From assembly GCA_032718475.1 (NCBI GenBank), contig JAUCBJ010003666.1, positions 1 to 51,875 of the forward strand: 51,875 nt of DNA. The letters are read 5' to 3'. How positions within the stretch are numbered: the stretch's first letter is position 1; each line of letters begins with the position of its first letter. The position numbers and the translations under genes are program-made. The notes beneath the pieces were generated by a model. It searched no databases. It had not been told where the DNA came from and saw nothing but the letters and a program-made list of their open reading frames with translations. The stretch comes from Nemertoderma westbladi. Taxonomy: Eukaryota; Animalia; Xenacoelomorpha. Positions 1 to 45,862 of the stretch are shown here, piece after piece.

Positions 1-90
1 ATGTCGCGTATCCGTACCACCCCTCTCGAACCCCTAAGGGTTCGGTCATCGAGAACCAGTACGGCTTGGCTAGGAGTCTGTCGTGTCGGT

Positions 91-174
91 GGACCCGTTC
101 GCGTGTCCGTTCCACCCCTCACGAACCCCGAAGGGTTCGATCATCGAGAACCAGAACGGCTTGGCTAGGGGTCC
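91..174 (-). ncRNA. Representative module A: putative kink-turn plus cUUCGg hairpin RNA motif
   Basis: The minus strand reads GGACCC-ctagccaag-CCGTTC-tggt-TCTC-gat-GA-t-CGAACCC-TTCG-GGGTTCG-t-GA-GGGG-tg-GAACGG-acacgcgaac-GGGTCC. This gives a closing stem, an inner stem, canonical K-turn geometry (3-nt GAU bulge, tandem G.A/A.G, U.U) and a UUCG loop. Folded by eye only; no expression evidence. Confidence 0.45.
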
Positions 175-726
175 GTCAGTTCATCACAGAAACCCAACCA
201 CCTAGGCTTTCCGAGTCCTTTTCAGGCTCGTAGTCGCTTCGGCAGCCGAGAAACTGCTCCGAACAGTCGGTAGGCCAGTAGAGTCTAGTCGAGTCTAGTC
301 CTTTGTCTTTCGACCCCATCGCGTGTCCGTTCCACCCCTCACGAACCCCGAAGGGAACGATCATCGAGAACCAGAACGGCTTGGCTAAGGGGTCTGTCGT
401 CGGTTCCCGTCGCGAATCACAGTCAAGCAGTCAGCGTTCCGAGTCCTTTTCAGGCTCGTAGTAGCCGCAGTTGACCCGAGACCGCTAAGGGCAGTCCTTG
501 TCAAACCAGTCCTGTGGCCAGCCCTTTCGCATGTCCGTCCCACCCCTCACGAACCCCGAAGGGATCGGTCATCGAGAACCAGTACGGCTTAGGTCAGGGG
601 GCAGTCTTAAGTTGGCCACCTGTTCGCGTGTCCGCTCCACCCCTCACGAACCCCGGGGTTCGATCATCGAGACCCAGAACGGCTTGGCTACTAAGGGGCC
701 GTCGGTGCCCGTCGCAAATCCCTGAC

Positions 727-805
727 ACAAGCAGTCAGCGTTCCGAGTCCTTTTCAGGCTCGTAGTAGCTGCCGTTGGCCAGGGACCGCTAAGGGCAGTC
801 CTTGT
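727..805 (-). ncRNA. Representative module B: putative multi-stem RNA motif with a GAAA tetraloop
   Basis: The minus strand has an ACAAG/CTTGT closing stem, a TTAGCG/CGCTGA stem (one G.U) and a CGAG-CCT-GAAA-AGG-a-CTCG hairpin. A second full copy is at 424-500 and a core-only copy at 209-234. Confidence 0.35.
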
Positions 806-889
806 CCTTTAGGCCTGGCGCATTACCAAATCCACCCCTACAGGCAGCAGGAAGTTGGCCAGGGCCTAATAGTACTCAGGCTAACCTGA

Positions 890-986
890 ATACTGCTTGC
901 ATTTTCCATCCCCCCTGGCCCTTATAACTATGAAATTATTCCCGTACCCTGTAAGTTGCCCCAAAGTTCGCCCATAAATCGCCCCC
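890..986 (-). promoter_or_regulatory. Possible Pol II core promoter pointing into the structured block
   Basis: Minus-strand TATAAG (926-921) lies 32 nt upstream of the A of an Inr-like GCAGTA (894). Three GC-box-like GGG(G)C(G)A motifs lie at 955-986. These are short motifs and could be chance. Confidence 0.2.
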
Positions 987-3900
987 AGTTTATTGAATGT
1001 GCCCAAAACCCATGGTCCCGCACCCAGTAGTAATATCGGAATAATCAATTTTAATAAAATACAAAAATATTCAACTCGCGTTATGGAAAGTTGAAATACC
1101 GCGAACAGTAGGACTGTCGAAACTATTACTGGTTGTACATGTAGGACTGTCGAAACTATTACAGGTTGTACATGTAGGACTGTCGAAACTATTACAGGTT
1201 GTACATGCAGTACTGTCGAAACTATTACAGGTTGTACATGTAGGACTGTCGAAACTATTACAGGTTGTACATGTAGGACTGTCGAAACTATTACAGGTTG
1301 TACATGTAGGACTGTCGAAACTATTACAGGTTGTACATGCAGGACTGTCGAAACTATTACAGGTTGTACATGTAGGACTGTCGAAACTATTACTGGTTGT
1401 ACATGTAGGACTGTCGAAACTATTACAGGTTGTACATGTAGGACTGTCGAAACTATTACAGGTTGTACATGCAGTACTGTCGAAACTATTACAGGTTGTA
1501 CATGCAGTACTGTCGAAACTATTACAGGTTGTACATGCAGTACTGTCGAAACTATTACAGGTTGTACATGTAGGACTGTCGAAACTATTACAGGTTGTAC
1601 ATGTAGGACTGTCGAAACTATTACAGGTTGTACATGCAGGACTGTCGAAACTATTACAGGTTGTACATGTAGGACTGTCGAAACTATTACTGGTTGTACA
1701 TGTAGGACTGTCGAAACTATTACAGGTTGTACATGCAGTACTGTCGAAACTATTACAGGTTGTACATGTAGGACTGTCGAAACTATTACTGGTTGTACAT
1801 GTAGGACTGTCGAAACTATTACTGGTTGTACATGTAGGACTGTCGAAACTATTACAGGTTGTACATGTAGGACTGTCGAAACTATTACAGGTTGTACATG
1901 CAGTACTGTCGAAACTATTACAGGTTGTACATGTAGGACTGTCGAAACTATTACTGGTTGTACATGTAGGACTGTCGAAACTATTACTGGTTGTACATGT
2001 AGGACTGTCGAAACTATTACATGTTGTACATGTAGGACTGTCGAAACTATTACAGGTTGTACATGCAGGACTGTCGAAACTATTACATGTTGTACATGTA
2101 GGACTGTCGAAACTATTACTGGTTGTACATGCAGGACTGTCGAAACTATTACTGGTTGTACATGCAGGACTGTCGAAACTATTACTGGTTGTACATGCAG
2201 GACTGTCGAAACTATTACTGGTTGTACATGTAGGACTGTCGAAACTATTACAGGTTGTACATGCCGGACTGTCGAAACTATTACAGGTTGTACATGTAGG
2301 ACTGTCGAAACTATTACATGTTGTACATGTAGGACTGTCGAAACTATTACTGGTTGTACATGCAGGACTGTCGAAACTATTACAGGTTGTACATGTAGGA
2401 CTGACGAAACTATTACTGGTTGTACATGCAGGACTGTCGAAACTATTACATGTTGTACATGCCGGACTGTCGAAACTATTACATGTTGTACATGTAGGAC
2501 TGACGAAACTATTACTGGTTGTACATGCAGGACTGTCGAAACTATTACATGTTGTACATGCCGGACTGTCGAAACTATTACTGGTTGTACATGCAGGACT
2601 GTCGAAACTATTACAGGTTGTACATGCAGGACTGTCTTAACTATTACTGGTTGTACATGTAGGACTGTCGAAACTATTACTGGTTGTACATGTAGGACTG
2701 TCGAAACTATTACAGGTTGTACATGTAGGACTGTCGAAACTATTACAGGTTGTACATGCAGTACTGTCGAAACTATTACAGGTTGTACATGTAGGACTGT
2801 CGAAACTATTACTGGTTGTACATGTAGGACTGTCGAAACTATTACTGGTTGTGCATGTAGGACTGTCGAAACTATTACAGGTTGTACATGTAGGACTGTC
2901 GAAACTATTACAGGTTGTACATGTAGGACTGTCGAAACTATTACTGGTTGTACATGCAGGACTGTCGAAACTATTACATGTTGTACATGCCGGACTGTCG
3001 AAACTATTACTGGTTGTACATGTAGGACTGTCGAAACTATTACTGGTTGTACATGTAGGACTGTCGAAACTATTACATGTTGTACATGCAGGACTGTCGA
3101 AACTATTACTGGTTGTACATGCAGGACTGTCGAAACTATTACAGGTTGTACATGCCGGACTGTCGAAACTATTACAGGTTGTACATGTAGGACTGTCGAA
3201 ACTATTACATGTTGTACATGTAGGACTGTCGAAACTATTACAGGTTGTACATGCAGGACTGTCGAAACTATTACATGTTGTACATGTAGGACTGTCGAAA
3301 CTATTACTGGTTGTACACGCAGGACTGTCGAAACTATTACTGGTTGTACATGCAGGACTGTCGAAACTATTACTGGTTGTACATGTATGACTGTCGAAAC
3401 TATTACAGGTTGTACATGCCGGTCTGTCGAAACTATTACAGGTTGTACATGTAGGACTGTCGAAACTATTACATGTTGTACATGTAGGACTGTCGAAACT
3501 ATTACTGGTTGTACATGCAGGACTGTCGAAACTATTACTGGTTGTACATGCAGGACTGTCGAAACTATTACAGGTTGTACATGCCGGACTGTCGAAACTA
3601 TTACAGGTTGTACATGTAGGACTGTCGAAACTATTACATGTTGTACATGTAGGACTGTCGAAACTATTACTGGTTGTACATGCAGGACTGTCGAAACTAT
3701 TACTGGTTGTACATGCAGGACTGTCGAAACTATTACAGGTTGTACATGCCGGACTGTCGAAACTATTACAGATTGTACATGTAGGACTGTCGAAACTATT
3801 ACTGGTTGTACATGCAGGACTGTCGAAACTATTACTGGTTGTACATGCAGGACTGTCGAAACTATTACTGGTTGTACATGCAGGACTGTCTTAACTATTA

Positions 3901-6900
3901 CTGGTTGTACATGCAGGACTGTCGAAACTATTACTGGTTGTACATGCAGGACTGTCGAAACTATTACTGGTTGTACATGTAGGACTGTCGAAACTATTAC
4001 TGGTTGTACATGCAGGACTGTCGAAACTATTACTGGTTGTACATGTAGGACTGTCGAAACTATTACAGGTTGTACATGTAGGACTGTCGAAACTATTACA
4101 TGTTGTACATGCAGGACTGTCGAAACTATTACTGGTTGTACATGCAGGACTGTCGAAACTATTACATGTTGTACATGTAGGACTGTCGAAACTATTACAT
4201 GTTGTACATGTAGGACTGTCGAAACTATTACATGTTGTACATGTAGGACTGTCGAAACTATTACATGTTGTACATGCAGGACTGTCGAAACTATTACTGG
4301 TTGTACATGCAGGACTGTCGAAACTATTACATGTTGTACATGTAGGACTGTCGAAACTATTACATGTTGTACATGTAGGACTGTCGAAACTATTACATGT
4401 TGTACATGTAGGACTGTCGAAACTATTACATGTTGTACATGCAGGACTGTCGAAACTATTACATGTTGTACATGCAGGACTGTCGAAACTATTACAGGTT
4501 GTACATGTAGGACTGTCGAAACTATTACTGGTTGTACATGCAGGACTGTCGAAACTATTACAGGTTGTACATGTAGGACTGTCGAAACTATTACTGGTTG
4601 TACATGTAGGACTGTCGAAACTATTACTGGTTGTACATGCAGGACTGTCGAAACTATTACTGGTTGTACATGCAGGACTGTCGAAACTATTACTGGTTGT
4701 ACATGTAGGACTGTCGAAACTATTACTGGTTGTACATGCAGGACTGTCGAAACTATTACAGGTTGTACATGTAGGACTGTCGAAACTATTACTGGTTGTA
4801 CATGCAGGACTGTCGAAACTATTACTGGTTGTACATGTAGGACTGTCGAAACTATTACTGGTTGTACATGTAGGACTGTCGAAACTATTACTGGTTGTAC
4901 ATGCAGGACTGTCGAAACTATTACTGGTTGTACATGCAGGACTGTCGAAACTATTACTGGTTGTACATGTAGGACTGTCGAAACTATTACAGGTTGTACA
5001 TGCAGGACTGTCGAAACTATTACAGGTTGTACATGCAGGACTGTCGAAACTATTACTGGTTGTACATGTAGGACTGTCGAAACTATTACTGGTTGTACAT
5101 GCAGGACTGTCGAAACTATTACAGGTTGTACATGTAGGACTGTCGAAACTATTACTGGTTGTACATGCAGGACTGTCGAAACTATTACTGGTTGTACATG
5201 TAGGACTGTCGAAACTATTACTGGTTGTACATGTAGGACTGTCGAAACTATTACTGGTTGTACATGCAGGACTGTCGAAACTATTACTGGTTGTACATGC
5301 AGGACTGTCGAAACTATTACTGGTTGTACATGTAGGACTGTCGAAACTATTACAGGTTGTACATGCAGGACTGTCGAAACTATTACTGGTTGTACATGTA
5401 GGACTGTCGAAACTATTACTGGTTGTACATGCAGGACTGTCGAAACTATTACTGGTTGTACATGTAGGACTGTCGAAACTATTACAGGTTGTACATGTAG
5501 GACTGTCGAAACTATTACAGGTTGTACATGCAGGACTGTCGAAACTATTACAGGTTGTACATGTAGGACTGTCGAAACTATTACAGGTTGTACATGCAGG
5601 ACTGTCGAAACTATTACAGGTTGTACATGTAGGACTGTCGAAACTATTACTGGTTGTACATGTAGGACTGTCGAAACTATTACAGGTTGTACATGTAGGA
5701 CTGTCGAAACTATTACAGGTTGTACATGCAGGACTGTCGAAACTATTACAGGTTGTACATGTAGGACTGTCGAAACTATTACTGGTTGTACATGTAGGAC
5801 TGTCGAAACTATTACTGGTTGTACATGTAGGACTGTCGAAACTATTACAGGTTGTACATGTAGGACTGTCGAAACTATTACTGGTTGTACATGTAGGACT
5901 GTCGAAACTATTACAGGTTGTACATGTAGGACTGTCGAAACTATTACAGGTTGTACATGTAGGACTGTCGAAACTATTACTGGTTGTACATGTAGGACTG
6001 TCGAAACTATTACTGGTTGTGCATGTAGGACTGTCGAAACTATTACAGGTTGTACATGTAGGACTGTCGAAACTATTACAGGTTGTACATGTAGGACTGT
6101 CGAAACTATTACTGGTTGTACATGTAGGACTGTCGAAACTATTACTGGTTGTACATGTAGGACTGTCGAAACTATTACTGGTTGTACATGTAGGACTGTC
6201 GAAACTATTACTGGTTGTACATGTAGGACTGTCGAAACTATTACATGGTGTACATGCAGGACTGTCGAAACTATTACTGGTTGTACATGCAGGACTGTCG
6301 AAACTATTACAGGTTGTACATGCCGGACTGTCGAAACTATTACAGGTTGTACATGTAGGACTGTCGAAACTATTACATGTTGTACATGTAGGACTGTCGA
6401 AACTATTACAGGTTGTACATGCAGGACTGTCGAAACTATTACATGTTGTACATGTAGGACTGTCGAAACTATTACTGGTTGTACATGCCGGACTGTCGAA
6501 ACTATTACTGGTTGTACATGTAGGACTGTCGAAACTATTACTGGTTGTACATGTAGGACTGTCGAAACTATTACATGGTGTACATGCAGGACTGTCGAAA
6601 CTATTACTGGTTGTACATGCAGGACTGTCGAAACTATTACAGGTTGTACATGCCGGACTGTCGAAACTATTACAGGTTGTACATGTAGGACTGTCGAAAC
6701 TATTACATGTTGTACATGTAGGACTGTCGAAACTATTACAGGTTGTACATGCAGGACTGTCGAAACTATTACATGTTGTACATGTAGGACTGTCGAAACT
6801 ATTACAGGTTGTACATGCAGGACTGTCGAAACTATTACTGGTTGTACATGCAGGACTGTCGAAACTATTACTGGTTGTACATGTAGGACTGTCGAAACTA

Positions 6901-9900
6901 TTACAGGTTGTACATGCCGGACTGTCGAAACTATTACAGGTTGTACATGTAGGACTGTCGAAACTATTACATGTTGTACATGTAGGACTGTCGAAACTAT
7001 TACTGGTTGTACATGCAGGACTGTCGAAACTATTACTGGTTGTACATGCAGGACTGTCGAAACTATTACAGGTTGTACATGCCGGACTGTCGAAACTATT
7101 ACAGGTTGTACATGTAGGACTGTCGAAACTATTACATGTTGTACATGTAGGACTGTCGAAACTATTACTGGTTGTACATGCAGGACTGTCGAAACTATTA
7201 CTGGTTGTACATGCAGGACTGTCGAAACTATTACAGGTTGTACATGCCGGACTGTCGAAACTATTACAGATTGTACATGTAGGACTGTCGAAACTATTAC
7301 TGGTTGTACATGCAGGACTGTCGAAACTATTACTGGTTGTACATGCAGGACTGTCGAAACTATTACTGGTTGTACATGCAGGACTGTCGAAACTATTACT
7401 GGTTGTACATGTAGGACTGTCGAAACTATTACTGGTTGTACATGTAGGACTGTCGAAACTATTACTGGTTGTACATGCAGGACTGTCGAAACTATTACAT
7501 GTTGTACATGTAGGACTGTCGAAACTATTACATGTTGTACATGTAGGACTGTCGAAACTATTACATGTTGTACATGCAGGACTGTCGAAACTATTACTGG
7601 TTGTACATGTAGGACTGTCGAAACTATTACTGGTTGTACATGCAGGACTGTCGAAACTATTACAGGTTGTACATGTAGGACTGTCGAAACTATTACTGGT
7701 TGTACATGCAGGACTGTCGAAACTATTACTGGTTGTACATGCAGGACTGTCGAAACTATTACAGGTTGTACATGCCGGACTGTCGAAACTATTACAGATT
7801 GTACATGTAGGACTGTCGAAACTATTACTGGTTGTACATGCAGGACTGTCGAAACTATTACTGGTTGTACATGCAGGACTGTCGAAACTATTACTGGTTG
7901 TACATGCAGGACTGTCGAAACTATTACTGGTTGTACATGTAGGACTGTCGAAACTATTACAGGTTGTACATGTAGGACTGTCGAAACTATTACTGGTTGT
8001 ACATGCAGGACTGTCGAAACTATTACAGGTTGTACATGTAGGACTGTCGAAACTATTACTGGTTGTACATGCAGGACTGTCGAAACTATTACAGGTTGTA
8101 CATGTAGGACTGTCGAAACTATTACTGGTTGTACATGCAGGACTGTCGAAACTATTACTGGTTGTACATGCAGGACTGTCGAAACTATTACAGGTTGTAC
8201 ATGCCGGACTGTCGAAACTATTACAGATTGTACATGTAGGACTGTCGAAACTATTACTGGTTGTACATGCAGGACTGTCGAAACTATTACTGGTTGTACA
8301 TGCAGGACTGTCGAAACTATTACTGGTTGTACATGCAGGACTGTCGAAACTATTACTGGTTGTACATGTAGGACTGTCGAAACTATTACTGGTTGTACAT
8401 GTAGGACTGTCGAAACTATTACTGGTTGTACATGCAGGACTGTCGAAACTATTACATGTTGTACATGTAGGACTGTCGAAACTATTACATGTTGTACATG
8501 TAGGACTGTCGAAACTATTACATGTTGTACATGCAGGACTGTCGAAACTATTACTGGTTGTACATGTAGGACTGTCGAAACTATTACTGGTTGTACATGC
8601 AGGACTGTCGAAACTATTACAGGTTGTACATGTAGGACTGTCGAAACTATTACTGGTTGTACATGTAGGACTGTCGAAACTATTACTGGTTGTACATGCA
8701 GGACTGTCGAAACTATTACTGGTTGTACATGCAGGACTGTCGAAACTATTACTGGTTGTACATGTAGGACTGTCGAAACTATTACTGGTTGTACATGCAG
8801 GACTGTCGAAACTATTACAGGTTGTACATGTAGGACTGTCGAAACTATTACATGTTGTACATGTAGGACTGTCGAAACTATTACTGGTTGTACATGCAGG
8901 ACTGTCGAAACTATTACAGGTTGTACATGTAGGACTGTCGAAACTATTACAGGTTGTACATGCCGGACTGTCGAAACTATTACAGGTTGTACATGTAGGA
9001 CTGTCGAAACTATTACATGTTGTACATGTAGGACTGTCGAAACTATTACAGATTGTACATGTAGGACTGTCGAAACTATTACAGGTTGTACATGCAGGAC
9101 TGTCGAAACTATTACATGTTGTACATGTAGGACTGTCGAAACTATTACATGTTGTACATGCAGGACTGTCTAACTATTACATGTTGTACATGTAGGACTG
9201 TCGAAACTATTACATGTTGTACATGTAGGACTGTCGAAACTATTACTGGTTGTACATGCAGGACTGTCGAAACTATTACTGGTTGTACATGTAGGACTGT
9301 CGAAACTATTACAGGTTGTACATGTAGGACTGTCGAAACTATTACATGTTGTACATGCAGGACTGTCGAAACTATTACATGTTGTACATGCAGGACTGTC
9401 GAAACTATTACATGTTGTACATGCAGGACTGTCGAAACTATTACATGTTGTACATGTAGGACTGTCGAAACTATTACTGGTTGTACATGCAGGACTGTCG
9501 AAACTATTACAGGTTGTACATGTAGGACTGTCGAAACTATTACTGGTTGTACATGTAGGACTGTCGAAACTATTACAGGTTGTACATGTAGGACTGTCGA
9601 AACTATTACAGGTTGTACATGCAGGACTGTCGAAACTATTACTGGTTGTACATGCAGGACTGTCGAAACTATTACAGGTTGTACATCCAGGACTGTCTTA
9701 ACTATTACTGGTTGTACATGCCGGACTGTCGAAACTATTACAGGTTGTACATGCAGGACTGTCGAAACTATTACAGGCTGTACATGTAGGACTGTCGAAA
9801 CTATTACAGGCTGTACATGTAGGACTGTCGAAACTATTACATGTTGTACATGCAGGACTGTCGAAACTATTACATGTTGTACATGCAGGACTGTCGAAAC

Positions 9901-12900
9901 TATTACATGTTGTACATGCAGGACTGTCTAACTATTACATGTTGTACATGTAGGACTGTCGAAACTATTACATGTTGTACATGTAGGACTGTCGAAACTA
10001 TTACTGGTTGTACATGCAGGACTGTCGAAACTATTACTGGTTGTACATGTAGGACTGTCGAAACTATTACAGGTTGTACATGTAGGACTGTCGAAACTAT
10101 TACATGTTGTACATGCAGGACTGTCGAAACTATTACATGTTGTACATGCAGGACTGTCGAAACTATTACATGTTGTACATGCAGGACTGTCGAAACTATT
10201 ACATGTTGTACATGTAGGACTGTCGAAACTATTACTGGTTGTACATGCAGGACTGTCGAAACTATTACAGGTTGTACATGTAGGACTGTCGAAACTATTA
10301 CTGGTTGTACATGTAGGACTGTCGAAACTATTACAGGTTGTACATGTAGGACTGTCGAAACTATTACAGGTTGTACATGCAGGACTGTCGAAACTATTAC
10401 TGGTTGTACATGCAGGACTGTCGAAACTATTACAGGTTGTACATCCAGGACTGTCTTAACTATTACTGGTTGTACATGCCGGACTGTCGAAACTATTACA
10501 GGTTGTACATGCAGGACTGTCGAAACTATTACAGGCTGTACATGTAGGACTGTCGAAACTATTACAGGCTGTACATGTAGGACTGTCGAAACTATTACTG
10601 GTTGTACATGTAGGACTGTCGAAACTATTACTGGTTGTACATGTAGGACTGTCGAAACTATTACTGGTTGTACATGTAGGACTGTCGAAACTATTACTGG
10701 TTGTACATGTACGACTGTCGAAACTATTACAGGCTGTACATGTAGGACTGTCGAAACTATTACATGTTGTACATGCAGGACTGTCGAAACTATTACTGGT
10801 TGTACATGCAGGACTGTCGAAACTATTACTGGTTGTACATGTAGGACTGTCGAAACTATTACTGGTTGTACATGCAGGACTGTCGAAACTATTACTGGTT
10901 GTACATGTAGGACTGTCGAAACTATTACTGGTTGTACATGTAGGACTGTCGAAACTATTACTGGTTGTACATGCAGGACTGTCGAAACTATTACTGGTTG
11001 TACATGTAGGACTGTCGAAACTATTACTGGTTGTACATGTAGGACTGTCGAAACTATTACTGGTTGTACATGCAGGACTGTCGAAACTATTACAGGTTGT
11101 ACATGCAGGACTGTCGAAACTATTACAGGCTGTACATGTAGGACTGTCGAAACTATTACAGGCTGTACATGTAGGACTGTCGAAACTATTACTGGTTGTA
11201 CATGTAGGACTGTCGAAACTATTACTGGTTGTACATGTAGGACTGTCGAAACTATTACTGGTTGTACATGCAGGACTGTCGAAACTATTACTGGTTGTAC
11301 ATGCCGGACTGTCGAAACTATTACTGGTTGTACATGCAGGACTGTCTTAACTATTACTGGTTGTACATGCAGGACTGTCTTAACTATTACTGGTTGTACA
11401 TGCAGGACTGTCGAAACTATTACAGGCTGTACATGCCGGACTGTCGAAACTATTACAGATTGTACATCCAGGAATGTCGAAACTATTACAGGTTGTACAT
11501 GCAGGACTGTCGAAACTATTACTGGTTGTGTACATGCAGGACTGTCTTAACTATTACTGGTTGTACATGCAGGACTGTCTTAACTATTACTGGTTGTACA
11601 TGCAGTACTGTCGAAACTATTACAGGCTGTACATGCAGGACTGTCGAAACTATTACTGGTTGTACATGCAGGACTGTCGAAACTATTACTGGTTGTACAT
11701 GCAGGACTGTCGAAACTATTACTGGTTGTACATGCAGGACTGTCGAAACTATTACAGGCTGTACATGCAGGACTGTCGAAACTATTACTGGTTGTACATG
11801 CCGGACTGTCTTAACTATTACAGGTTGTACATGCAGGACTGTCTTAACTATTACAGGTTGTACATGCCGGACTGTCGAAACTATTACAGGCTGTACATGC
11901 AGGACTGTCGAAACTATTACTGGTTGTACATGCAGGACTGTCGAAACTATTACTGGTTGTACATGCAGGACTGTCGAAACTATTACAGGCTGTACATGCA
12001 GGACTGTCGAAACTATTACTGGTTGTACATGCCGGACTGTCTTAACTATTACTGGTTGTACATGCAGGACTGTCTTAACTATTACTGGTTGTACATCCAG
12101 GACTGTCTTAACTATTACTGGTTGTACATGCAGGACTGTCTTAACTATTACTGGTTGTACATGCAGGACTGTCTTAACTATTACTGGTTGTACATGTAGG
12201 ACTGTCGAAACTATTACTGGTTGTACATGCAGGACTGTCGAAACTATTACTGGTTGTACATGCAGGACTGTCGAAACTATTACATGTTGTACATGTAGGA
12301 CTGTCGAAACTATTACAGGTTGTACATGCAGTACTGTCGAAACTATTACAGGTTGTACATCCAGGACTGTCTTAACTATTACTGGTTGTACATGCAGGAC
12401 TGTCTTAACTATTACTGGTTGTACATGCAGGACTGTCTTAACTATTACTGGTTGTACATGCAGGACTGTCGAAACTATTACTGGTTGTACATGCAGGACT
12501 GTCGAAACTATTACATGTTGTACATGTAGGACTGTCGAAACTATTACAGGTTGTACATGCAGTACTGTCGAAACTATTACTGGTTGTACATCCAGGACTG
12601 TCTTAACTATTACTGGTTGTACATGCAGGACTGTCTTAACTATTACTGGTTGTACATGCAGGACTGTCTTAACTATTACTGGTTGTACATGTAGGACTGT
12701 CGAAACTATTACATGTTGTACATGTAGGACTGTCGAAACTATTACAGGTTGTACATGCAGTACTGTCGAAACTATTACTGGTTGTACATCCAGGACTGTC
12801 TTAACTATTACTGGTTGTACATGCAGGACTGTCTTAACTATTACTGGTTGTACATGCAGGACTGTCGAAACTATTACAGGTTGTACATGCAGGACTGTCG

Positions 12901-15900
12901 AAACTAATACTGGTTGTACATGCAGGACTGTCTTAACTATTACTGGTTGTACATGCAGGACTGTCTTAACTATTACTGGTTGTACATGCAGGACTGTCTT
13001 AACTATTACTGGTTGTACATGCAGGACTGTCTTAACTATTACTGGTTGTACATGCAGGACTGTCTTAACTATTACTGGTTGTACATGCAGGACTGTCGAA
13101 ACTATTACTGGTTGTACATGCAGGACTGTCGAAACTATTACTGGTTGTACATGCAGGACTGTCGAAACTAATACTGGTTGTACATGCAGGACTGTCTTAA
13201 CTATTACTGGTTGTACATGCAGGACTGTCTTAACTATTACTGGTTGTACATGCAGGACTGTCGAAACTATTACTGGTTGTACATGCAGGACTGTCGAAAC
13301 TAATACTGGTTGTACATGCAGGACTGTCTTAACTATTACTGGTTGTACATGCAGGACTGTCGAAACTAATACTGGTTGTACATGCAGGACTGTCTTAACT
13401 ATTACTGGTTGTACATGCAGGACTGTCTTAACTATTACTGGTTGTACATGCAGGACTGTCGAAACTATTACTGGTTGTACATGCCGGACTGTCGAAACTA
13501 TTACTGGTTGTACATGCAGGACTTTCGAAACTATTACAGGTTGTACATGCCGGACTGTCGAAACTATTACTGGTTGTACATGCCGGACTGTCGAAACTAT
13601 TACAGGCTGTACATGCAGGACTGTCGAAACTATTACTGGTTGTACATGCCGGACTGTCGAAACTATTTCAGGTTGTACATGCAGGACTGTCGAAACTATT
13701 ACAGGCTGTACATGCCGGACTGTCGAAACTATTACAGGTTGTACATGCAGGACTGTCGAAACTATTACAGGCTGTACATGTAGGACTGTCGAAACTATTA
13801 CTGGTTGTACATGCAGGACTGTCTTAACTATTACTGGTTGTACATCCAGGACTATCGAAACTATTACTGGTTGTACATGCAGGACTGTCGAAACTATTAC
13901 TGGTTGTACATCCAGGACTGTCTTAACTATTACTGGTTGTACATGCAGGACTGTCTTAACTATTACTGGTTGTACATGCAGGACTGTCTTAACTATTACT
14001 GGTTGTACATGCAGGACTGTCTTAACTATTACTGGTTGTACATGCAGGACTGTCTTAACTATTACTGGTTGTACATGCAGGACTGTCTTAACTATTACTG
14101 GTTGTACATGCAGGACTGTCGAAACTATTACTGGTTGTACATGCAGGACTTTCGAAACTATTACAGGTTGTACATGCCGGACTGTCGAAACTATTACTGG
14201 TTGTACATGCAGGACTGTCTTAACTATTACTGGTTGTACATGCAGGACTGTCGAAACTATTACAGGTTGTACATGCCGGACTGTCGAAACTATTACAGGC
14301 TGTACATGCAGGACTGTCGAAACTATTACTGGTTGTACATGCAGGACTGTCTTAACTATTACTGGTTGTACATGCAGGACTGTCTTAACTATTACTGGTT
14401 GTACATGCAGGACTGTCGAAACTATTACAGGTTGTACATGCAGTACTGTCGAAACTATTACAGGTTGTACATGCCGGACTGTCGAAACTATTACAGGCTG
14501 TACATGCAGGACTGTCGAAACTATTACTGGTTGTACATGCAGGACTGTCTTAACTATTACTGGTTGTACATGCAGGACTGTCTTAACTATTACTGGTTGT
14601 ACATGCAGGACTGTCGAAACTATTACAGGTTGTACATGCAGTACTGTCGAAACTATTACAGGTTGTACATGCCGGACTGTCGAAACTATTACAGGCTGTA
14701 CATGCAGGACTGTCGAAACTATTACTGGTTGTACATGCAGTACTGTCGAAACTATTACTGGTTGTACATCCAGGACTGTCTTAACTATTACTGGTTGTAC
14801 ATGCAGGACTGTCTTAACTATTACTGGTTGTACATGCAGGACTGTCTTAACTATTACTGGTTGTACATGTAGGACTGTCGAAACTATTACATGTTGTACA
14901 TGTAGGACTGTCGAAACTATTACAGGTTGTACATGCAGTACTGTCGAAACTATTACTGGTTGTACATCCAGGACTGTCTTAACTATTACTGGTTGTACAT
15001 GCAGGACTGTCTTAACTATTACTGGTTGTACATGCAGGACTGTCGAAACTATTACAGGTTGTACATGCAGGACTGTCGAAACTAATACTGGTTGTACATG
15101 CAGGACTGTCTTAACTATTACTGGTTGTACATGCAGGACTGTCTTAACTATTACTGGTTGTACATGCAGGACTGTCTTAACTATTACTGGTTGTACATGC
15201 AGGACTGTCTTAACTATTACTGGTTGTACATGCAGGACTGTCTTAACTATTACTGGTTGTACATGCAGGACTGTCTTAACTATTACTGGTTGTACATGCA
15301 GGACTGTCGAAACTATTACTGGTTGTACATGCAGGACTGTCGAAACTAATACTGGTTGTACATGCAGGACTGTCTTAACTATTACTGGTTGTACATGCAG
15401 GACTGTCTTAACTATTACTGGTTGTACATGCAGGACTGTCGAAACTATTACTGGTTGTACATGCAGGACTGTCGAAACTAATACTGGTTGTACATGCAGG
15501 ACTGTCTTAACTATTACTGGTTGTACATGCAGGACTGTCGAAACTAATACTGGTTGTACATGCAGGACTGTCTTAACTATTACTGGTTGTACATGCAGGA
15601 CTGTCTTAACTATTACTGGTTGTACATGCAGGACTGTCGAAACTATTACTGGTTGTACATGCCGGACTGTCGAAACTATTACTGGTTGTACATGCAGGAC
15701 TTTCGAAACTATTACAGGTTGTACATGCCGGACTGTCGAAACTATTACTGGTTGTACATGCCGGACTGTCGAAACTATTACAGGCTGTACATGCAGGACT
15801 GTCGAAACTATTACTGGTTGTACATGCCGGACTGTCGAAACTATTTCAGGTTGTACATGCAGGACTGTCGAAACTATTACAGGCTGTACATGCCGGACTG

Positions 15901-17414
15901 TCGAAACTATTACAGGTTGTACATGCAGGACTGTCGAAACTATTACAGGCTGTACATGTAGGACTGTCGAAACTATTACTGGTTGTACATGCAGGACTGT
16001 CTTAACTATTACTGGTTGTACATCCAGGACTATCGAAACTATTACTGGTTGTACATGCAGGACTGTCGAAACTATTACTGGTTGTACATGCAGGACTGTC
16101 TTAACTATTACTGGTTGTACATCCAGGACTGTCGAAACTATTACAGGCTGTACATGCAGGACTGTCGAAACTATTACTGGTTGTACATGCCGGACTGTCG
16201 AAACTATTTCAGGTTGTACATGCAGGACTTTCGAAACTATTACAGGTTGTACATGCAGGACTGTCGAAACTATTACAGGATGTACATGCAGGACTGTCGA
16301 AACTATTACAGGTTGTACATGCAGGACTTTCGAAACTATTACAGGTTGTACATGCAGGACTGTCTTAACTATTACTGGTTGTACATGCCGGACTGTCGAA
16401 ACTATTACTGGTTGTACATGCAGGACTGTCGAAACTATTACAGGCTGTACATGCAGGACTGTCGAAACTATTACAGGTTATACATGCCGGACTGTCGAAA
16501 CTATTACAGGCTGTACAGTACATGCCGGACTGTCGAAACTATTACAGGCTGTACATGTAGGACTGTCGAAACTATTACTGGTTGTACATGCAGGACTGTC
16601 GAAACTATTACAGGTTGTACATGCAGTACTGTCGAAACTATTACAGGTTATACATGCCGGACTGTCGAAACTATTACAGGCTGTACATGCAGGACTGTCG
16701 AAACTATTACTGGTTGTACATGCAGGACTGTCTTAACTATTACTGGTTGTACATGTAGGACTGTCGAAACTATTACTGGTTGTACATGCAGGACTGTCTT
16801 AACTATTACTGGTTGTACATGCAGGACTGTCGAAACTATTACAGGTTGTACATGCCGGACTGTCGAAACTATTACAGGCTGTACATGCAGGACTGTCGAA
16901 ACTATTACTGGTTGTACATGCAGGACTGTCTTAACTATTACTGGTTGTACATGCAGGACTGTCTTAACTATTACTGGTTGTACATGCAGGACTGTCGAAA
17001 CTATTACAGGTTGTACATGCAGTACTGTCGAAACTATTACAGGTTGTACATGCCGGACTGTCGAAACTATTACAGGCTGTACATGCAGGACTGTCGAAAC
17101 TATTACTGGTTGTACATGCAGGACTGTCTTAACTATTACTGGTTGTACATGCAGGACTGTCTTAACTATTACTGGTTGTACATGCAGGACTGTCGAAACT
17201 ATTACAGGTTGTACATGCAGTACTGTCGAAACTATTACAGGTTGTACATGCCGGACTGTCGAAACTATTACAGGCTGTACATGCAGGACTGTCGAAACTA
17301 TTACTGGTTGTACATGCAGGACTGTCTTAACTATTACTGGTTGTACATGCAGGACTGTCGAAACTATTACTGGTTGTACATGCAGGACTGTCGAAACTAT
17401 TACAGGTTGTACAT

Positions 17415-18039
17415 ACTACTACTACTACTAGGATCGGCATGCTGCATTGCAGCTGCATTTTTAAGAATGCTGTGCCGGCTTATCGACAAAATCGCACCGC
17501 CACAACTCCCTATCACCCATGACATTTGCTAGATCATCCGCATCTTCAAGGCCAGTGTCCTTTAAGATGCGTCTCAAGAAAGTCATGGGTTGTCCACCAT
17601 GCTTATTCACTCCATGAGGCTGCCAAAGTACAAGATTATGCACTGGCTGGTCCTCACGGCGAAAGCAATGTCCTGCAAAGCGGAGCCGATTTTGTTCTAG
17701 TGTCAAGCTTGGGGGAACCAATGAGACACCTCCAATGTTATATAGTGTCTGGTTGGAGATGTGTGCATTGTACTTGACACAATGTACCCGGCGTAGCATT
17801 CTTGTGAATGTGCCATCCAGAGATTTGGTGTCCTCAGCAGTTAGAGCCCAGCATGGACTCCCGTAGAGGAGTACTGGAACTACTGCTGCTCTAAATAATC
17901 GGACCTTAAGTTTCCGATTAATTCTAGGTGACTTCCAAATCCTGGAAAGCCTATTCAAGGCTGCCCATGCCTTTCCCTTACGTATTCGAAGGTCCTCACC
18001 TGACTTCCGGATCCATGATCCCAGGTAACAGAAGTCGAC
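17415..18039 (-). mobile_element. 5'-truncated RTE-clade non-LTR retrotransposon (625 bp) with (TAG)n tail and 14-bp TSD
   Basis: TSD TACAGGTTGTACAT at 17401-17414 and 18040-18053. The (TAC)5TA run at 17414-17430 is a (TAG)n tail on the minus strand, preceded by a 30-nt 3'UTR (17431-17460). The coding remnant has RTE-like motifs. Confidence 0.93.
17461..18039 (-). pseudogene. C-terminal 192 aa of an RTE-type reverse-transcriptase ORF (end of RT, thumb and C-terminal region); 5' part missing
   Basis: VDFCYLGS...RIRKGKAWAALNRLSRIWKS...KLKVRLFRAAVVPVLLYG...RLRFAGHCFRR...LWQP.G...DRELWR matches the RTE-clade pattern (F.YLGS, VLLYG..W, RLR..GH..R, DR..WR). No internal stops; TAA at 17463-17461. 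The N-terminal 151 aa of the track ORF 17461..18492 is satellite read-through. Confidence 0.9.
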
Positions 18040-21000
18040 TACAGGTTGTACATGCAGTACTGTCGAAACTATTACAGGTTGTACATGCCGGACTGTCGAA
18101 ACTATTACAGGCTGTACATGCAGGACTGTCGAAACTATTACTGGTTGTACATGCAGGACTGTCTTAACTATTACTGGTTGTACATGCAGGACTGTCTTAA
18201 CTATTACTGGTTGTACATGCAGGACTGTCGAAACTATTACTGGTTGTACATGCAGGACTGTCGAAACTATTACTGGTTGTACATGCCGGACTGTCGAAAC
18301 TATTACAGGCTGTACAGTACATGCCGGACTGTCGAAACTATTACAGGCTGTACATGCCGGACTGTCGAAACTATTGCAGATTGTACATCCAGGAATGTCG
18401 AAACTATTACAGGTTGTACATGCAGGACTGTCGAAACTATTACAGGTTGTACATGCCGGACTGTCGAAACTATTACAGGCTGTACAGTACATGCCAGACT
18501 GTCGAAACTATTACAGGCTGTACATGCAGGACTGTCGAAACTATTACTGGTTGTACATGCAGGACTGTCGAAACTATTACATGTTGTACATGTAGGACTG
18601 TCGAAACTATTACAGGTTGTACATGCAGTACTGTCGAAACTATTACAGGTTGTACATGCCGGACTGTCGAAACTATTACAGGCTGTACATGCAGGACTGT
18701 CTTAACTATTACTGGTTGTACATCCAGGACTGTCTTAACTATTACTGGTTGTACATGCAGGACTGTCTTAACTATTACTGGTTGTACATGCAGGACTGTC
18801 TTAACTATTACTGGTTGTACATGCCGGACTGTCGAAACTGTTACAGGCTGTACAGTACATGCCGGACTGTCGAAACTATTACAGGCTGTACATGCCGGAC
18901 TGTCGAAACTATTACAGATTGTACATCCAGGAATGTCGAAACTATTACAGGTTGTACATGCAGGACTGTCGAAACTATTACTGGTTGTACATGCAGGACT
19001 GTCTTAACTATTACTGGTTGTACATGCAGGACTGTCTTAACTATTACTGGTTGTACATGCAGTACTGTCGAAACTATTACTGGTTGTACATGCCGGACTG
19101 TCGAAACTATTACTGGTTGTACATGCAGGACTGTCTTAACTATTACTGGTTGTACATGCAGGACTGTCTTAACTATTACTGGTTGTACATGCAGTACTGT
19201 CGAAACTATTACTGGTTGTACATGCCGGACTGTCGAAACTATTACAGGCTGTACATGCAGGTCTGTCTTAACTATTACTGGTTGTACATCCAGGACTGTC
19301 TTAACTATTACTGGTTGTACATGCAGGACTGTCGAAACTATTACAGGCTGTACATGCCGGACTGTCGAAACTATTACAGATTGTACATCCAGGAATGTCG
19401 AAACTATTACAGGTTGTACATGCAGGACTGTCGAAACTATTACTGGTTGTGTACATGCAGGACTGTCTTAACTATTACTGGTTGTACATGCAGGACTGTC
19501 TTAACTATTACTGGTTGTACATGCAGTACTGTCGAAACTATTACAGGCTGTACATGCAGGACTGTCGAAACTATTACTGGTTGTACATGCAGGACTGTCG
19601 AAACTATTACTGGTTGTACATGCAGGACTGTCGAAACTATTACTGGTTGTACATGCAGGACTGTCGAAACTATTACAGGCTGTACATGCAGGACTGTCGA
19701 AACTATTACTGGTTGTACATGCCGGACTGTCTTAACTATTACAGGTTGTACATGCAGGACTGTCTTAACTATTACAGGTTGTACATGCCGGACTGTCGAA
19801 ACTATTACAGGCTGTACATGCAGGACTGTCGAAACTATTACTGGTTGTACATGCAGGACTGTCGAAACTATTACTGGTTGTACATGCAGGACTGTCGAAA
19901 CTATTACAGGCTGTACATGCAGGACTGTCGAAACTATTACTGGTTGTACATGCCGGACTGTCTTAACTATTACTGGTTGTACATGCAGGACTGTCTTAAC
20001 TATTACTGGTTGTACATCCAGGACTGTCTTAACTATTACTGGTTGTACATCCAGGACTGTCTTAACTATTACTGGTTGTACATGCAGGACTGTCGAAACT
20101 ATTACAGGCTGTACATGCCGGACTGTCGAAACTATTACAGATTGTACATCCAGGAATGTCGAAACTATTACAGGTTGTACATGCAGGACTGTCGAAACTA
20201 TTACTGGTTGTGTACATGCAGGACTGTCTTAACTATTACTGGTTGTACATGCAGGACTGTCTTAACTATTACTGGTTGTACATGCAGTACTGTCGAAACT
20301 ATTACAGGCTGTACATGCAGGACTGTCGAAACTATTACTGGTTGTACATGCAGGACTGTCGAAACTATTACTGGTTGTACATGCAGGACTGTCGAAACTA
20401 TTACTGGTTGTACATGCAGGACTGTCGAAACTATTACAGGCTGTACATGCAGGACTGTCGAAACTATTACTGGTTGTACATGCCGGACTGTCTTAACTAT
20501 TACAGGTTGTACATGCAGGACTGTCTTAACTATTACAGGTTGTACATGCCGGACTGTCGAAACTATTACAGGCTGTACATGCAGGACTGTCGAAACTATT
20601 ACTGGTTGTACATGCAGGACTGTCGAAACTATTACTGGTTGTACATGCAGGACTGTCGAAACTATTACAGGCTGTACATGCAGGACTGTCGAAACTATTA
20701 CTGGTTGTACATGCCGGACTGTCTTAACTATTACTGGTTGTACATGCAGGACTGTCTTAACTATTACTGGTTGTACATCCAGGACTGTCTTAACTATTAC
20801 TGGTTGTACATGCAGGACTGTCTTAACTATTACTGGTTGTACATGCAGGACTGTCTTAACTATTACTGGTTGTACATGTAGGACTGTCGAAACTATTACT
20901 GGTTGTACATGCAGGACTGTCGAAACTATTACTGGTTGTACATGCAGGACTGTCGAAACTATTACATGTTGTACATGTAGGACTGTCGAAACTATTACAG

Positions 21001-24000
21001 GTTGTACATGCAGTACTGTCGAAACTATTACAGGTTGTACATCCAGGACTGTCTTAACTATTACTGGTTGTACATGCAGGACTGTCTTAATTATTACTGG
21101 TTGTACATGCAGGACTGTCTTAACTATTACTGGTTGTACATGCAGGACTGTCGAAACTATTACTGGTTGTACATGCAGGACTGTCGAAACTATTACATGT
21201 TGTACATGTAGGACTGTCGAAACTATTACAGGTTGTACATGCAGTACTGTCGAAACTATTACTGGTTGTACATCCAGGACTGTCTTAACTATTACTGGTT
21301 GTACATGCAGGACTGTCTTAACTATTACTGGTTGCACATGCAGGACTGTCTTAACTATTACTGGTTGTACATGTAGGACTGTCGAAACTATTACATGTTG
21401 TACATGTAGGACTGTCGAAACTATTACAGGTTGTACATGCAGTACTGTCGAAACTATTACTGGTTGTACATCCAGGACTGTCTTAACTATTACTGGTTGT
21501 ACATGCAGGACTGTCTTAACTATTACTGGTTGTACATGCAGGACTGTCGAAACTATTACAGGTTGTACATGCAGGACTGTCGAAACTAATACTGGTTGTA
21601 CATGCAGGACTGTCTTAACTATTACTGGTTGTACATGCAGGACTGTCTTAACTATTACTGGTTGTACATGCAGGACTGTCTTAACTATTACTGGTTGTAC
21701 ATGCAGGACTGTCGAAACTATTACTGGTTGTACATGCAGGACTGTCGAAACTAATACTGGTTGTACATGCAGGACTGTCTTAACTATTACTGGTTGTACA
21801 TGCAGGACTGTCTTAACTATTACTGGTTGTACATGCAGGACTGTCGAAACTATTACTGGTTGTACATGCAGGACTGTCGAAACTAATACTGGTTGTACAT
21901 GCAGGACTGTCTTAACTATTACTGGTTGTACATGCAGGACTGTCGAAACTAATACTGGTTGTACATGCAGGACTGTCTTAACTATTACTGGTTGTACATG
22001 CAGGACTGTCTTAACTATTACTGGTTGTACATGCAGGACTGTCTTAACTATTACTGGTTGTACATGCAGGACTGTCTTAACTATTACAGGTTGTACATGC
22101 CGGACCGTCTTAACTATTACAGGTTGTACATGCAGGACTGTCGAAACTATTACTGGTTGTACATGCAGGACTGTCGAAACTATTACATGTTGTACATGTA
22201 GGACTGTCTTAACTATTACTGGTTGAACATGCCGGACTGTCGAAACTATTACTGGTTGTACATGTAGGACTGTCTTAACTATTACTGGTTGTACATGCCG
22301 GACTGTCGAAACTATTACTGGTTGTACATGCAGGACTGTCGAAACTATTACAGATTGTACATCCAGGACTGTCTTAACTATTACTGGTTGTACATGCAGG
22401 ACTGTCTTAACTATTACTGGTTGTACATGCAGGACTGTCTTAACTATTACTGGTTGTACATGCAGGACTGTCTTAACTATTACTGGTTGTACATGCAGGA
22501 CTGTCGAAACTATTACTGGTTGTACATGCCGGACTGTCGAAACTGTTACAGGCTGTACAGTACATGCCGGACTGTCGAAACTATTACAGGCTGTACATGC
22601 CGGACTGTCGAAACTATTACAGGCTGTACATGCCGGACTGTCGAAACTATTACTGGTTGTACATGCAGGACTGTCTTAACTATTACTGGTTGTACATGCC
22701 GGACTGTCTTAACTATTACAGATTGTACATCCAGGAATGTCGAAACTATTACAGGTTGTACATGCAGGACTGTCGAAACTATTACTGGTTGTACATGCAG
22801 GACTGTCTTAACTATTACTGGTTGTACATGCAGGACTGTCTTAACTATTACTGGTTGTACATGCAGGACTGTCGAAACTATTACAGGCTGTACATGCAGG
22901 ACTGTCGAAACTATTACTGGTTGTACATGCAGTACTGTCGAAACTATTACAGGTTGTACATGCCGGACTGTCTAAACTATTACAGGCTGTACATGCAGGA
23001 CTGTCGAAACTATTACTGGTTGTACATGCAGGACTGTCGAAACTATTACTGGTTGTACATGCAGGACTGTCGAAACTATTACTGGTTGTACATGCCGGAC
23101 TGTCGAAACTATTACTGGTTGTACATGCCGGACTGTCGAAACTATTACAGGTTGTACATGCCGGACTGTCTTAACTATTACTGGTTGTACATGTAGGACT
23201 GTCGAAACTATTACAGGCTGTACATGCAGGACTGTCTTAACTATTACAGGTTGTACATGTAGGACTGTCGAAACTATTACAGATTGTACATCCAGGAATG
23301 TCGAAACTATTACAGGTTGTACATGCCGGACTGTCTTAACTATTACTGGTTGTACATGCAGGACTGTCTTAACTATTACTGGTTGTACATGCAGGACTGT
23401 CGAAACTATTACTGCTTGTACATGCCGGACTGTCGAAACTGTTACAGGCTGTACAGTACATGCCGGACTGTCGAAACTATTACAGGCTGTACATGCCGGA
23501 CTGTCGAAACTATTACAGGCTGTACATGCCGGACTGTCGAAACTATTACTGGTTGTACATGCAGGACTGTCTTAACTATTACTGGTTGTACATGCAGGAC
23601 TGTCGAAACTATTACTGGTTGTACATGCCGGACTGTCGAAACTGTTACAGGCTGTACAGTACATGCCGGACTGTCGAAACTATTACAGGCTGTACATGCC
23701 GGACTGTCGAAACTATTACAGGCTGTACATGCCGGACTGTCGAAACTATTACTGGTTGTACATGCCGGACTGTCGAAACTATTACTGGTTGTACATGCCG
23801 GACTGTCGAAACTATTACTGGTTGTACATGCCGGACTGTCGAAACTATTACAGATTGTACATCCAGGAATGTCGAAACTATTACAGGTTGTACATGCCGG
23901 ACTGTCTTAACTATTACTGGTTGTACATGTAGGACTGTCGAAACTATTACAGGCTGTACATGCCGGACTGTCGAAACTATTACAGGCTGTACATGCCGGA

Positions 24001-42000: not shown

Positions 42001-43549
42001 GTACATGCCGGACTGTCGAAACTATTACAAATTGTACATGCAGGACTGTCGAAACTATTATAGGTTGTACATGCAGGACTGTCGAAACTATTATAGGTTG
42101 TACATGCAGGACTGTCGAAACTATTACATGTTGTACATGCAGGACTGTCTTAACTATTACTGGTTGTACATGCAGGACTTTCGAAACTATTACTGGTTGT
42201 ACATGTAGGACTGTCGATACTATTACAGATTGTACATCCAGGACTGTCGAAACTATTACAGGTTGTACATGCAGGACTGTCGAAACTATTACTGGTTGTA
42301 CATGCAGGACTGTCTTAACTATTACTGGTTGTACATGCCGGACTGTCGAAACTATTACAGATTGTACATGTAGGACTGTCGAAACTATTACATGTTGTAC
42401 ATGCAGGACTGTCTTAACTATTACTGGTTGTACATGCAGGACTGTCGAAACTATTACTGGTTGTACATGTAGGACTGTCGAAACTATTACTGGTTGTACA
42501 TGCAGGACTCTCGAAACTATTACTGGTTGTACATGCAGGACTTTCTTAACTATTACTGGTTGTACATGCCGGACTGTCGAAACTATTACAGATTGTACAT
42601 GTAGGACTGTCGAAACTATTACTGGTTGTACATGCAGGACTGTCGAAACTATTACAGGTTGTACATACAGGACTGTCTTAACTATTACAGGTTGTACATG
42701 CAGGACTGTCTTAACTATTACAGGCTGTACATGCAGGACTGTCGAAACTATTACAGGTTGTACATGTAGGACTGTCGAAACTATTTCAGGTTGTACATGT
42801 AGGACTGTCGAAACTATTACTGGTTATACATGCAGGACTGTCGAAACTATTACTGGTTGTACATGCCGGACTGTCGAAACTATTACAGGTTGTACATACA
42901 GGACTGTCTTAACTATTACAGGTTGTACATGCAGGACTGTCGAAACTATTACAGGTTGTACATACAGGACTGTCTTAACTATTACAGGTTGTACATGCAG
43001 GACTGTCTTAACTATTACAGGCTGTACATGCAGGACTGTCGAAACTATTACAGGTTGTACATGTAGGACTGTCGAAACTATTTCAGGTTGTACATGTAGG
43101 ACTGTCGAAACTATTACTGGTTGTACATGCAGGACTGTCTTAACTATTACAGGTTGTACATGCAGGACTGTCGAAACTATTACAGGTTGTACATACAGGA
43201 CTGTCTTAACTATTACAGGTTGTACATGCAGGACTGTCTTAACTATTACAGGCTGTACATGCAGGACTGTCGAAACTATTACAGGTTGTACATGTAGGAC
43301 TGTCGAAACTATTTCAGGTTGTACATGTAGGACTGTCGAAACTATTACAGGTTGTACATGCAGGACTGTCGAAACTATTACAGGTTATACAAGGAGGTCT
43401 GTCGAAACTATTTCAGGCTGTACATGCAGGACTGTCGAAACTATCTCATTCTTTGTAAATTTTATTTTGGTAGGTGTTTGTTTGTAAATATAAATTGTCT
43501 GTGGGGTTGTAAAGTAGAAGAACATCTTGTTTTGAATAATAATGAATGT

Positions 43550-44650: not shown

Positions 44651-45510
44651 TTAATTAAGTTTATTAGGGTAAAGTCAGCAATTTCCACCTGCCTCTTAAA
44701 GGATATTAATTATTTTCTAGTATAAGATTTAAATAATTATACTTCAAAATTATATAACTGCATTCCCAATACCCCATTCCATTATAGTTTTAAATTAGTT
44801 CAAGAGATTTGCTTTAAGAAATGTGTTTTTAATTGATCTAAATGTAATTAAGTTATCAAAATTCCACCGTATCTCTATACGTCCAGCTCCCTCATTCATT
44901 GACATGCTTGATATTGCCTAGCCTATCTGCTGGCGCTGGGAACCATAGTCCAACCACCTCAGCACTACTTGGCAACGGGTAATTACATCAATATAACATA
45001 GCCACTACAGTAGTGTAAGGTACCAGACTAATAAGTCAACTTGCTTTATCTGCCTTTCATTAATCCTCTGTGCTCCTTTGGGTTGGGGTGGTGCAGATTA
45101 AGAGGGCGGTTGAAGCAAGGGGGATCTTTCTTCTCTTCTTTGATTTATTTTTATTGGTTTTGGTTAAATTTTATTAATTATTTATTTAAATTTCTTAAGT
45201 ACCGATTTTGGGATAGAATTGCTCAATTTCAATCTGTATCTAATAACTGAGCCTCGTTATGCGCGATGGCCCCCACGAACATGTTCCTAATTGGCCAGAG
45301 AAAACTACAGATGTAATTAATTTGTTAGAAATGTTTGTTGATTTGGGGTCAATTATAGTTCTAGAATATTGCCTAATTCTTGTTAGTCTATCGATTAATT
45401 GTTAAAGGCCTCCACGGATTATTTTTCCGTATGGATGTCCAATAAGGTTGAAGTTTATACAGCTATATAGTAATTAATATTGTAGTCAGAACAAAAAGTC
45501 AGACAAAATA

Positions 45511-45752: not shown

Positions 45753-45862
45753 GACAAAATACCCCTTTTTTACATCTCTTAAAATAATAAATGTGTATAA
45801 ATATATTTATGTTGCAGATTAATGTACTATACCTGCACAATGACTAACTCAATCTTCTTTAG

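Follow-up and report, generated by a model that had tools for sequence, protein, structure and literature searches.

Five copies of a minus-strand module stand at the left end of a 51,875-nucleotide stretch of Nemertoderma westbladi DNA (hereafter the window). They raise the question of which genetic unit they belong to, whether they act as RNA and what such an RNA would do. A first-pass annotation had described them from the letters alone as canonical K-turn hairpins with UUCG caps, part of either a free-standing repeated non-coding RNA or the leader of a mobile element. We found the five modules (A1 to A5) where they had been placed, and in 5/5 we saw the TCTC/GGGG C-stem, a GAT bulge and the two GA dinucleotides. 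The inner and outer stems are likewise as described, as are the 3b.3n position (U.U in three modules, C.A in one and C.U in one) and the apical loops (UUCG in three, UUAG in one, deleted in one). At the position of the UUAG loop, 43,856 of a depth of 43,918 in sequencing run X1 carry another letter, a depth to which other A copies mapping there also contribute. The earlier description, set at 1..700, covers the five A modules but leaves out a terminus at 1109 and three hairpins of a second type, B, interleaved with them: in the 5′ to 3′ direction of the minus strand, the order of modules is B A A B A B A A (Table 1).

On its minus strand, window 1-1109 begins a mobile element of high copy number that has inserted into a 33-bp satellite. 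The satellite (about 1,533 units, with two insertions) flanks the element and is not part of it. All five loci fetched with 930-1109 (L011-L015) share a sharp terminus at about 1109, beyond which the flanks are unrelated; the element ends in AACA immediately in four of them and after a short duplication in the fifth. Three of these copies (L011, L012 and L013) are nested in other mobile elements, with frames that look transposase-, integrase- and gypsy-type pol-like by eye. Summed contig depth of the element reached 2e4-2e5 in runs X1 and X3. Directly past 1109, C-runs of 5 and 7 nt were present among the listed loose ends of runs X4 and X6 (2/4 runs), that is, G runs on the element strand; they correspond to the polypurine tract, about 10 nt long, that precedes the 3′ LTR in BEL/Pao elements, although they are shorter. 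In X6, one 886-nt contig links the purine tract, 1109-674 and an A module, a path that a collapsed repeat could also give. We did not take this contig as evidence of transcription, because X6, presumed to be RNA although none of the listed runs is recorded as such, also contains satellite and a LINE.

The nature of the element is indicated by a homologue of the array in the same-species assembly (L003, 5930-6650, minus strand), which lies upstream of BEL/Pao gag-pol. Downstream of the array, the ORF pieces of L003 and L008 encode, in order, DUF1759, a zinc knuckle (zf-CCHC), Asp_protease_2, Peptidase_A17, integrase and DUF5641, the zf-CCHC and Asp_protease_2 Pfam matches being below cut-off. 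The L003 copy is broken into several frames, and two pieces of its RT region had no Pfam match. Several hundred bases of AT-rich sequence separate array and gag in this locus, and the link between the two is made by one contig and by the shared B motif. After the integrase comes an extra ORF, at L008:1-435 (minus strand) and in the same place in L009, which contains a B module; the stretch between pol and this ORF holds short tandem repeats and a tract with strong strand bias. Identity to the nearest integrases is 37-46% (among the best 120 of 662). When 1-830 was searched against a genome index, six genomes were ranked, and among those listed only the same-species assembly had matches.

BEL/Pao elements (Belpaoviridae, Semotivirus) have two LTRs in direct repeat around the ORFs, the 5′ LTR being followed by an 18-nt primer-binding site for tRNA-Arg or tRNA-Gly (PMC8742986). 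The present element resembles them in its gag-PR-(RT)-RH-IN order, which is that of Metaviridae, in the Pao-specific Pfam domains and in a purine tract adjoining the terminus. Its presumed LTR, at least 1.1 kb long, is at or above the stated range of 0.2-1.2 kb (PMC8742986). AATAAA and ATTAAA are absent from all four arrays; 3′ of the array, such a hexamer lies about 50 nt ahead of a TTGGTR in 2/3 loci. TTGGTR itself is found there in 3/3 loci, followed by non-conserved sequence; we recognised no primer-binding site, and no tRNA genes were detected in six loci. The same-species contig C2 stops inside the post-pol ORF, ahead of any 3′ LTR, and placing run contigs on L003 did not locate the 3′ end of the LTR. 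Taken together, window 1-1109 is likely the 5′ part of the LTR of a very abundant BEL/Pao retrotransposon. Hence, between the two options offered earlier, the mobile-element leader is borne out by the shared terminus and by the array upstream of gag-pol, and the free-standing non-coding RNA gives way to an array that belongs to the element. We infer minus-strand transcription from about position 895, with the array in R or in the leader.

Table 1. Features of the window (positions on the 51,875-nt stretch).
Feature	Position	Strand	Basis or remark
5′ part of likely BEL/Pao LTR	1..1109	-	shared terminus at 1109, C-run beyond, homologous array 5′ of gag-pol in L003; continues off the window at position 1
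Module A1	1..80, core 6-70	-	3b.3n C.A; outer stem cut by window end
Module A2	91..174, core 101-165	-	3b.3n U.U
Module B1, long hairpin	180..270 (outer limits approximate), core 213-229	-	fold, copy alignment
Module A3	311..394, core 321-385	-	3b.3n U.U
Module B2	429..469, core 441-457	-	copy alignment
Module A4	512..604, core 529-593	-	3b.3n C.U
Module A5	612..702, core 626-688	-	K-turn consensus hairpin, apical loop deleted
Module B3, long hairpin with loop-E-like internal loop, bulged A and GAAA tetraloop	702..797, core 745-761	-	z -5.7 sense, -2.3 antisense
10-bp hairpin, putative 5′ end of transcript	871..894	-	fold; stem core kept with differing 4-nt loops in 4/4 copies
Putative U3/promoter, begins TGTT, unstructured	896..1109	-	fold z +1.8 sense, +0.7 antisense; terminus
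Putative TATA-like box, points into array	921..927	-	T/A-rich heptamer and fixed flank, same place in 4/4 aligned copies
33-bp satellite	1110..51874	none	flanking repeat

Other features were seen in the window and around copies of the element. Within the satellite, window 17417-18029 (minus strand) is the end of a 5′-truncated non-LTR retrotransposon of about 610 bp, with an RT C-terminal-like frame and a short trinucleotide tail, which we take to be RTE-like. Its very abundant family also cuts the upstream end of the L003 array (98% identical) and adjoins L007. A 2.6-kb non-satellite insertion at 43463-46105 carries a 45-bp unit repeated in tandem about 20 times (43699-44594), together with a short inverted repeat; it matched neither loci L001-L015 nor window 1-1109. 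In L002, an intact 949-aa frame of a VPS50-like host gene (972-3818, minus strand; Vps54_N and Syndetin_C) lies about 1.6 kb from the element terminus.

To the five A modules of the window we added three from the same-species loci L002 and L003, giving a comparison set of eight copies; the best 80 of 539 other BEL/Pao loci yielded none. Two claims on the module did not survive this enlargement. The apical loops of the additional copies are UUUG, GUUA and GUAU, so that UUCG is confined to the sub-lineage of the window, and the inner-stem position reported as covarying is a purine-purine mismatch in 4/8 copies. The outer arms fared better: arms from the same copy paired at -9.4 kcal/mol vs -6.6 kcal/mol for arms from different copies (p 0.0004, 7 copies). 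The length of A differs by one base between sub-lineages, and the L003 A has an in-frame stop. Used as query, the divergent L003 A copy matched only itself in the same-species assembly.

The apical stem of module B has 7 bp and a bulged A and is capped by a GAAA tetraloop; below it, most copies have an NUA/GAA internal loop and then a long variable outer stem. We aligned 22 copies, setting aside L006:1229-1245 (treated as a chance match), L003:337-353 (doubtful) and L007:869-910 (insertion). The loop is GAAA in 21/22 copies, and 149/154 stem cells (96.8%) are paired, against 16-57% pairing when partners are slid by one to three columns. All 14 one-sided changes gave G.U, vs 2 A.C mismatches, and 3 cells changed on both sides. 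A two-sided change occurred in 2/7 pairs, which 75/500 shuffles also reached, and the covariation score was reached by 9/500; as the copies are related, these counts overstate independent events. B is conserved mainly in sequence. Its outer arms, tested by swapping between copies on 24 candidates (the two from L006 and L003, both doubtful, being retained here), paired at -17.1 kcal/mol within copies vs -11.0 kcal/mol between copies, a difference reached in 0/20,000 permutations. The lower internal loop of the B1 long hairpin (180-270, minus strand) has opposed GA dinucleotides, kept in L002 and L003, which may form tandem sheared pairs or a K-turn-like motif of reversed order.

B also occurs within coding sequence, with two copies in gag (phase 0) and one in the post-pol ORF (phase 2; L008 and L009). 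The two gag copies are without an outer stem (z -0.1 and -0.6), one of them with a stem mismatch. Since B recurs in two ORFs in different frames, it would act as nucleic acid; and because its frames differ and A varies by one base in length, neither module is a peptide repeat.

Folding of the array is strand-specific. With 25 shuffles each, local-fold z scores on the sense and antisense strands were -5.6 and -1.5 for the window, -5.3 and +0.1 for L002, -6.8 and -1.5 for L003, and -4.2 and -2.6 for L007. Control segments gave -0.9 (gag), -1.4 (pol) and +1.8 (U3). Folding is therefore predicted for the RNA strand of the element itself, and the minus-strand structured RNA postulated from the window is supported by computation. 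The predicted leader has -354 kcal/mol over 895 nt and contains 9 AUGs. A comparison with Rfam 15, which the first-pass annotation had proposed, gave no match for the window at the gathering score (no snoRNA, SECIS, ribozyme, IRES or export element), hence no described Rfam family. At E<=10, positions 1-1110 gave one weak snoRNA match (13.6 bits vs a cut-off of 55), and five related loci had none at E<=1. A box C/D-like pair near 175-190 was rejected, as it is not kept in L002 or L003.

Does module A form a K-turn? The motif is defined by a 3-nt bulge followed by tandem G.A and A.G pairs, according to the available text of PMC5689011. In sequence, 8/8 A copies conform to this rule. Both GA are invariant in all eight while the bulge varies (GAU in 6, AAU in 1, GUG in 1); L3 is U in 7/8, -1b.-1n is C-G in 5 and U-A in 3, and 3b.3n is U.U, C.A, C.U or C-G. 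The 4-bp C-stem is fully paired in 8/8 copies, with one two-sided change. A K-turn-hairpin descriptor, written after the motif was seen, matched 4/5 window copies on the minus strand and none on the plus strand. Its background was 15 matches in 3000 shuffles of one module, or a mean of 0.075 matches per shuffle of 1-1109 (200 shuffles); as the A copies are paralogues, the one-module figure is the fair one.

The same bases nevertheless allow a slid, non-kinked register with a 5-6-nt bulge, and it is this register that RNAalifold chooses. It is 0.8-6.0 kcal/mol lower in the five window copies; of the other three, two have it at a higher energy than the kinked register and one at the same energy. 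The K-turn loop is open in the predicted folds of both L003 copies, and the L002 copy has a third fold as its minimum. The slid register, too, shows two-sided changes. Thus the description as a canonical K-turn holds for the sequence rule and is not matched by the fold that these energies favour in the window copies. The energy models used here contain no K-turn term, and the K-turns of U4 and box C/D RNAs stay unfolded until protein binds (PMC5689011, in the part available); for both reasons the folding result fits a K-turn closed by protein, with which it is compatible, and is no proof of one.

The two modules differ in distribution. B is present in every array seen (3 copies in the window, 4 in L002, 5 in L003, 1 in L006 and 6 in L007), and A only in the window, L002 and L003. 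The L007 array (395-1001) has six B modules at a spacing of about 100 bp, with one longer gap, and no A; module number and type thus vary within the element family. In 80 other BEL/Pao loci from metagenomes (the best 80 of 539 confirmed, with 17/64 parts scanned; many short or without LTRs) neither A nor B modules were found. The A model had no match there; a weak match of the B model in L016 (E 0.058) was rejected, since it falls within the RT coding frame, and the K-turn descriptor gave 13 scattered matches in 458 kb on the sense strand. Searches with the B-core pattern returned 0 matches in viral contigs and 0 in metagenome contigs, an integrase search of viral contigs confirmed 0 of 3 candidates, and none of 7,997 candidates was a gag homologue at E<=0.001. 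The hairpin array is so far confined to one species.

Loop E, the sarcin-ricin bulged-G motif, has the form AGUA/GAA. B has exactly this form in 5/22 copies and ACUA or AUUA/GAA in 13; unlike loop E, it has C or U in place of the bulged G in most copies, the loop is a different one in three L003 copies, and one gag copy also departs from the form. For module A the closest relatives are the K-turns of U4 snRNA and box C/D snoRNA (PMC5689011, available text), with which it shares the 3-nt bulge, the tandem G.A/A.G, a hairpin-closed NC helix and, in three copies, the 3b.3n U.U. In contrast to a box C/D guide, as far as that source describes it, A has C-G or U-A at 4b.4n, is arrayed in a retroelement, and we saw neither a guide nor a terminal C/D pair. 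Among retroelements, the core encapsidation signal of MoMuLV is a set of stem-loops, SL-C of which has an 'A-minor K-turn' (PMC7599994, PMC5758548, in part). Several leader stem-loops, one of them kinked, are common to SL-B/SL-C/SL-D and to our array, and the multivalent NC binding of MoMuLV (PMC7599994, PMC7357161, accessible sections) is proposed here by analogy. Whereas MoMuLV in these sections has a non-standard 'A-minor K-turn' and kissing GACG loops, the present array has a standard K-turn sequence with tandem G.A, GAAA and non-conserved 4-mer loops and repeated modules, and lies within the putative R.

What the RNA would do can be proposed from its anatomy. Our first choice, held with rather less than even confidence, is that the array is a multivalent docking scaffold marking the element's genomic RNA for packaging; we prefer it because the element has to select its own RNA and has short hairpins that recur in its leader and elsewhere along its genome. 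Pol II would start near 895 and transcribe the array. B, which every array seen contains and which is dispersed over the genome of the element, would be the core site, read by Gag/nucleocapsid via the near-fixed apical stem, the bulged A and the GAAA loop. A would be an add-on of one sub-lineage, its K-turn closed by a host L7Ae-family protein (15.5K or eL30); closure would bend the arm and help to switch the RNA from translation to packaging. The idea of such a switch comes from the competing slid register and from the AUG found inside the K-turn bulges of all five window modules. Against packaging, a site in R is on every transcript and so discriminates less than the retroviral psi. The more specific proposal, that the LTR built a standard K-turn and loop-E/GAAA array recruiting host 15.5K or eL30 multivalently, with a slid/kinked toggle between translation and packaging, is possible and rather doubtful.

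Two rival functions rest on the same anatomy as packaging. The array could serve the nuclear export of unspliced genomic RNA, either by host factors, as a CTE does, or by the protein of the post-pol ORF in the manner of Rex/Rec. Export elements occur in retroviral U3/R; the putative position of the array in R, its multi-copy layout and an ORF of no assigned function that itself contains a B copy would suit this role. However, the Rfam search of 1-1110 yielded nothing beyond the weak snoRNA match, and the ORF, of which 138 aa are visible before the contig stops, had no Pfam match and three weak matches among 1.84 billion proteins, the one inspected being a repeat protein; we regard export as unlikely. 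Similar reserve applies to translation control, in which a very stable leader with upstream AUGs would block scanning and B, loop-E-like with a GNRA loop, would aid internal entry or shunting to gag or a downstream ORF. The predicted stability and AUGs of the leader and the NUA/GAA loop under most B stems speak for it, and loop E and GNRA motifs occur in viral IRESs. Yet B copies also lie inside ORFs and not just ahead of starts, AT-rich sequence intervenes between array and gag in L003, and no IRES family was matched, so that we give this role a small share of our confidence.

Other explanations dispense with a bound protein or with an RNA function. If the 4x4 loop of A were an 11-nt receptor for the GAAA tetraloop of B, the array could self-assemble or dimerise without protein. 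The A loop does read as an 11ntR variant (C2-G10, A4-A5, A8 and G6 kept in 8/8, position 7 being C or U against G6), the partner loop is nearly invariant, and the 1G11C swap occurs naturally, at a cost of 0.82 kcal/mol (PMC10243134, accessible part). But the receptor core (U3.A8, C2-G10, A4-A5 platform) is incomplete, with U3 in only 3/8 A copies and C at position 3 in 5/8, including 4/5 in the window; 3C receptor variants exceed the binding limit, 3C7C and 3C9C losing >4 kcal/mol for GAAA (PMC10243134, same part), and the six-B array of L007 has no A to dock with. This makes docking improbable. We give equally little credence to an array without function as RNA, be it the remnant of a coding repeat or an enhancer repeat that acts as DNA and whose folding is accidental. 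B does read as a short peptide twice in gag, A is an open frame in the window, and tandem duplication is common in LTRs; the one-base length difference and in-frame stop of A, the different frames of B, and the folding, G.U bias and arm-swap tests, all of which favour one strand, argue against it. Self-cleaving ribozymes, finally, are carried by retroelement repeats in hammerhead or HDV-like form, and the modules are ribozyme-sized. They are highly improbable here: no Rfam ribozyme family reached the gathering score in the window, 1-1110 had no relevant match at E<=10 and the five related loci had none at E<=1, and the consensus cores of hammerhead, HDV, twister and pistol did not fit by eye.

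Structured cis elements in retroelement leaders are already known; what appears to be new is a BEL/Pao LTR with a repeated array of two modules, one of them a standard K-turn by sequence. The open-access literature, as far as its accessible texts extend, yielded no description of arrayed standard K-turns within the LTR of a retroelement, and the available parts of PMC3118150, PMC4316175 and PMC7357161 do not contain a two-module array. Nor is such an array with standard K-turns, or any structured LTR array, mentioned in the BEL/Pao profile (PMC8742986). A repeat-library entry for this element family may exist. According to the ICTV profile, BEL/Pao replication is poorly understood, and the primer-binding site and the purine tract are the only cis-acting RNA features that it names (PMC8742986). 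If the K-turn proposal were true, an RNP signal of spliceosome/snoRNP type would have been co-opted by an LTR element, and binding of 15.5K or eL30 would amount to a new host dependency of LTR elements. The modules are short, naturally repeated, available in many variants and testable in vitro, and through them the selection and traffic of BEL/Pao RNA would become approachable.
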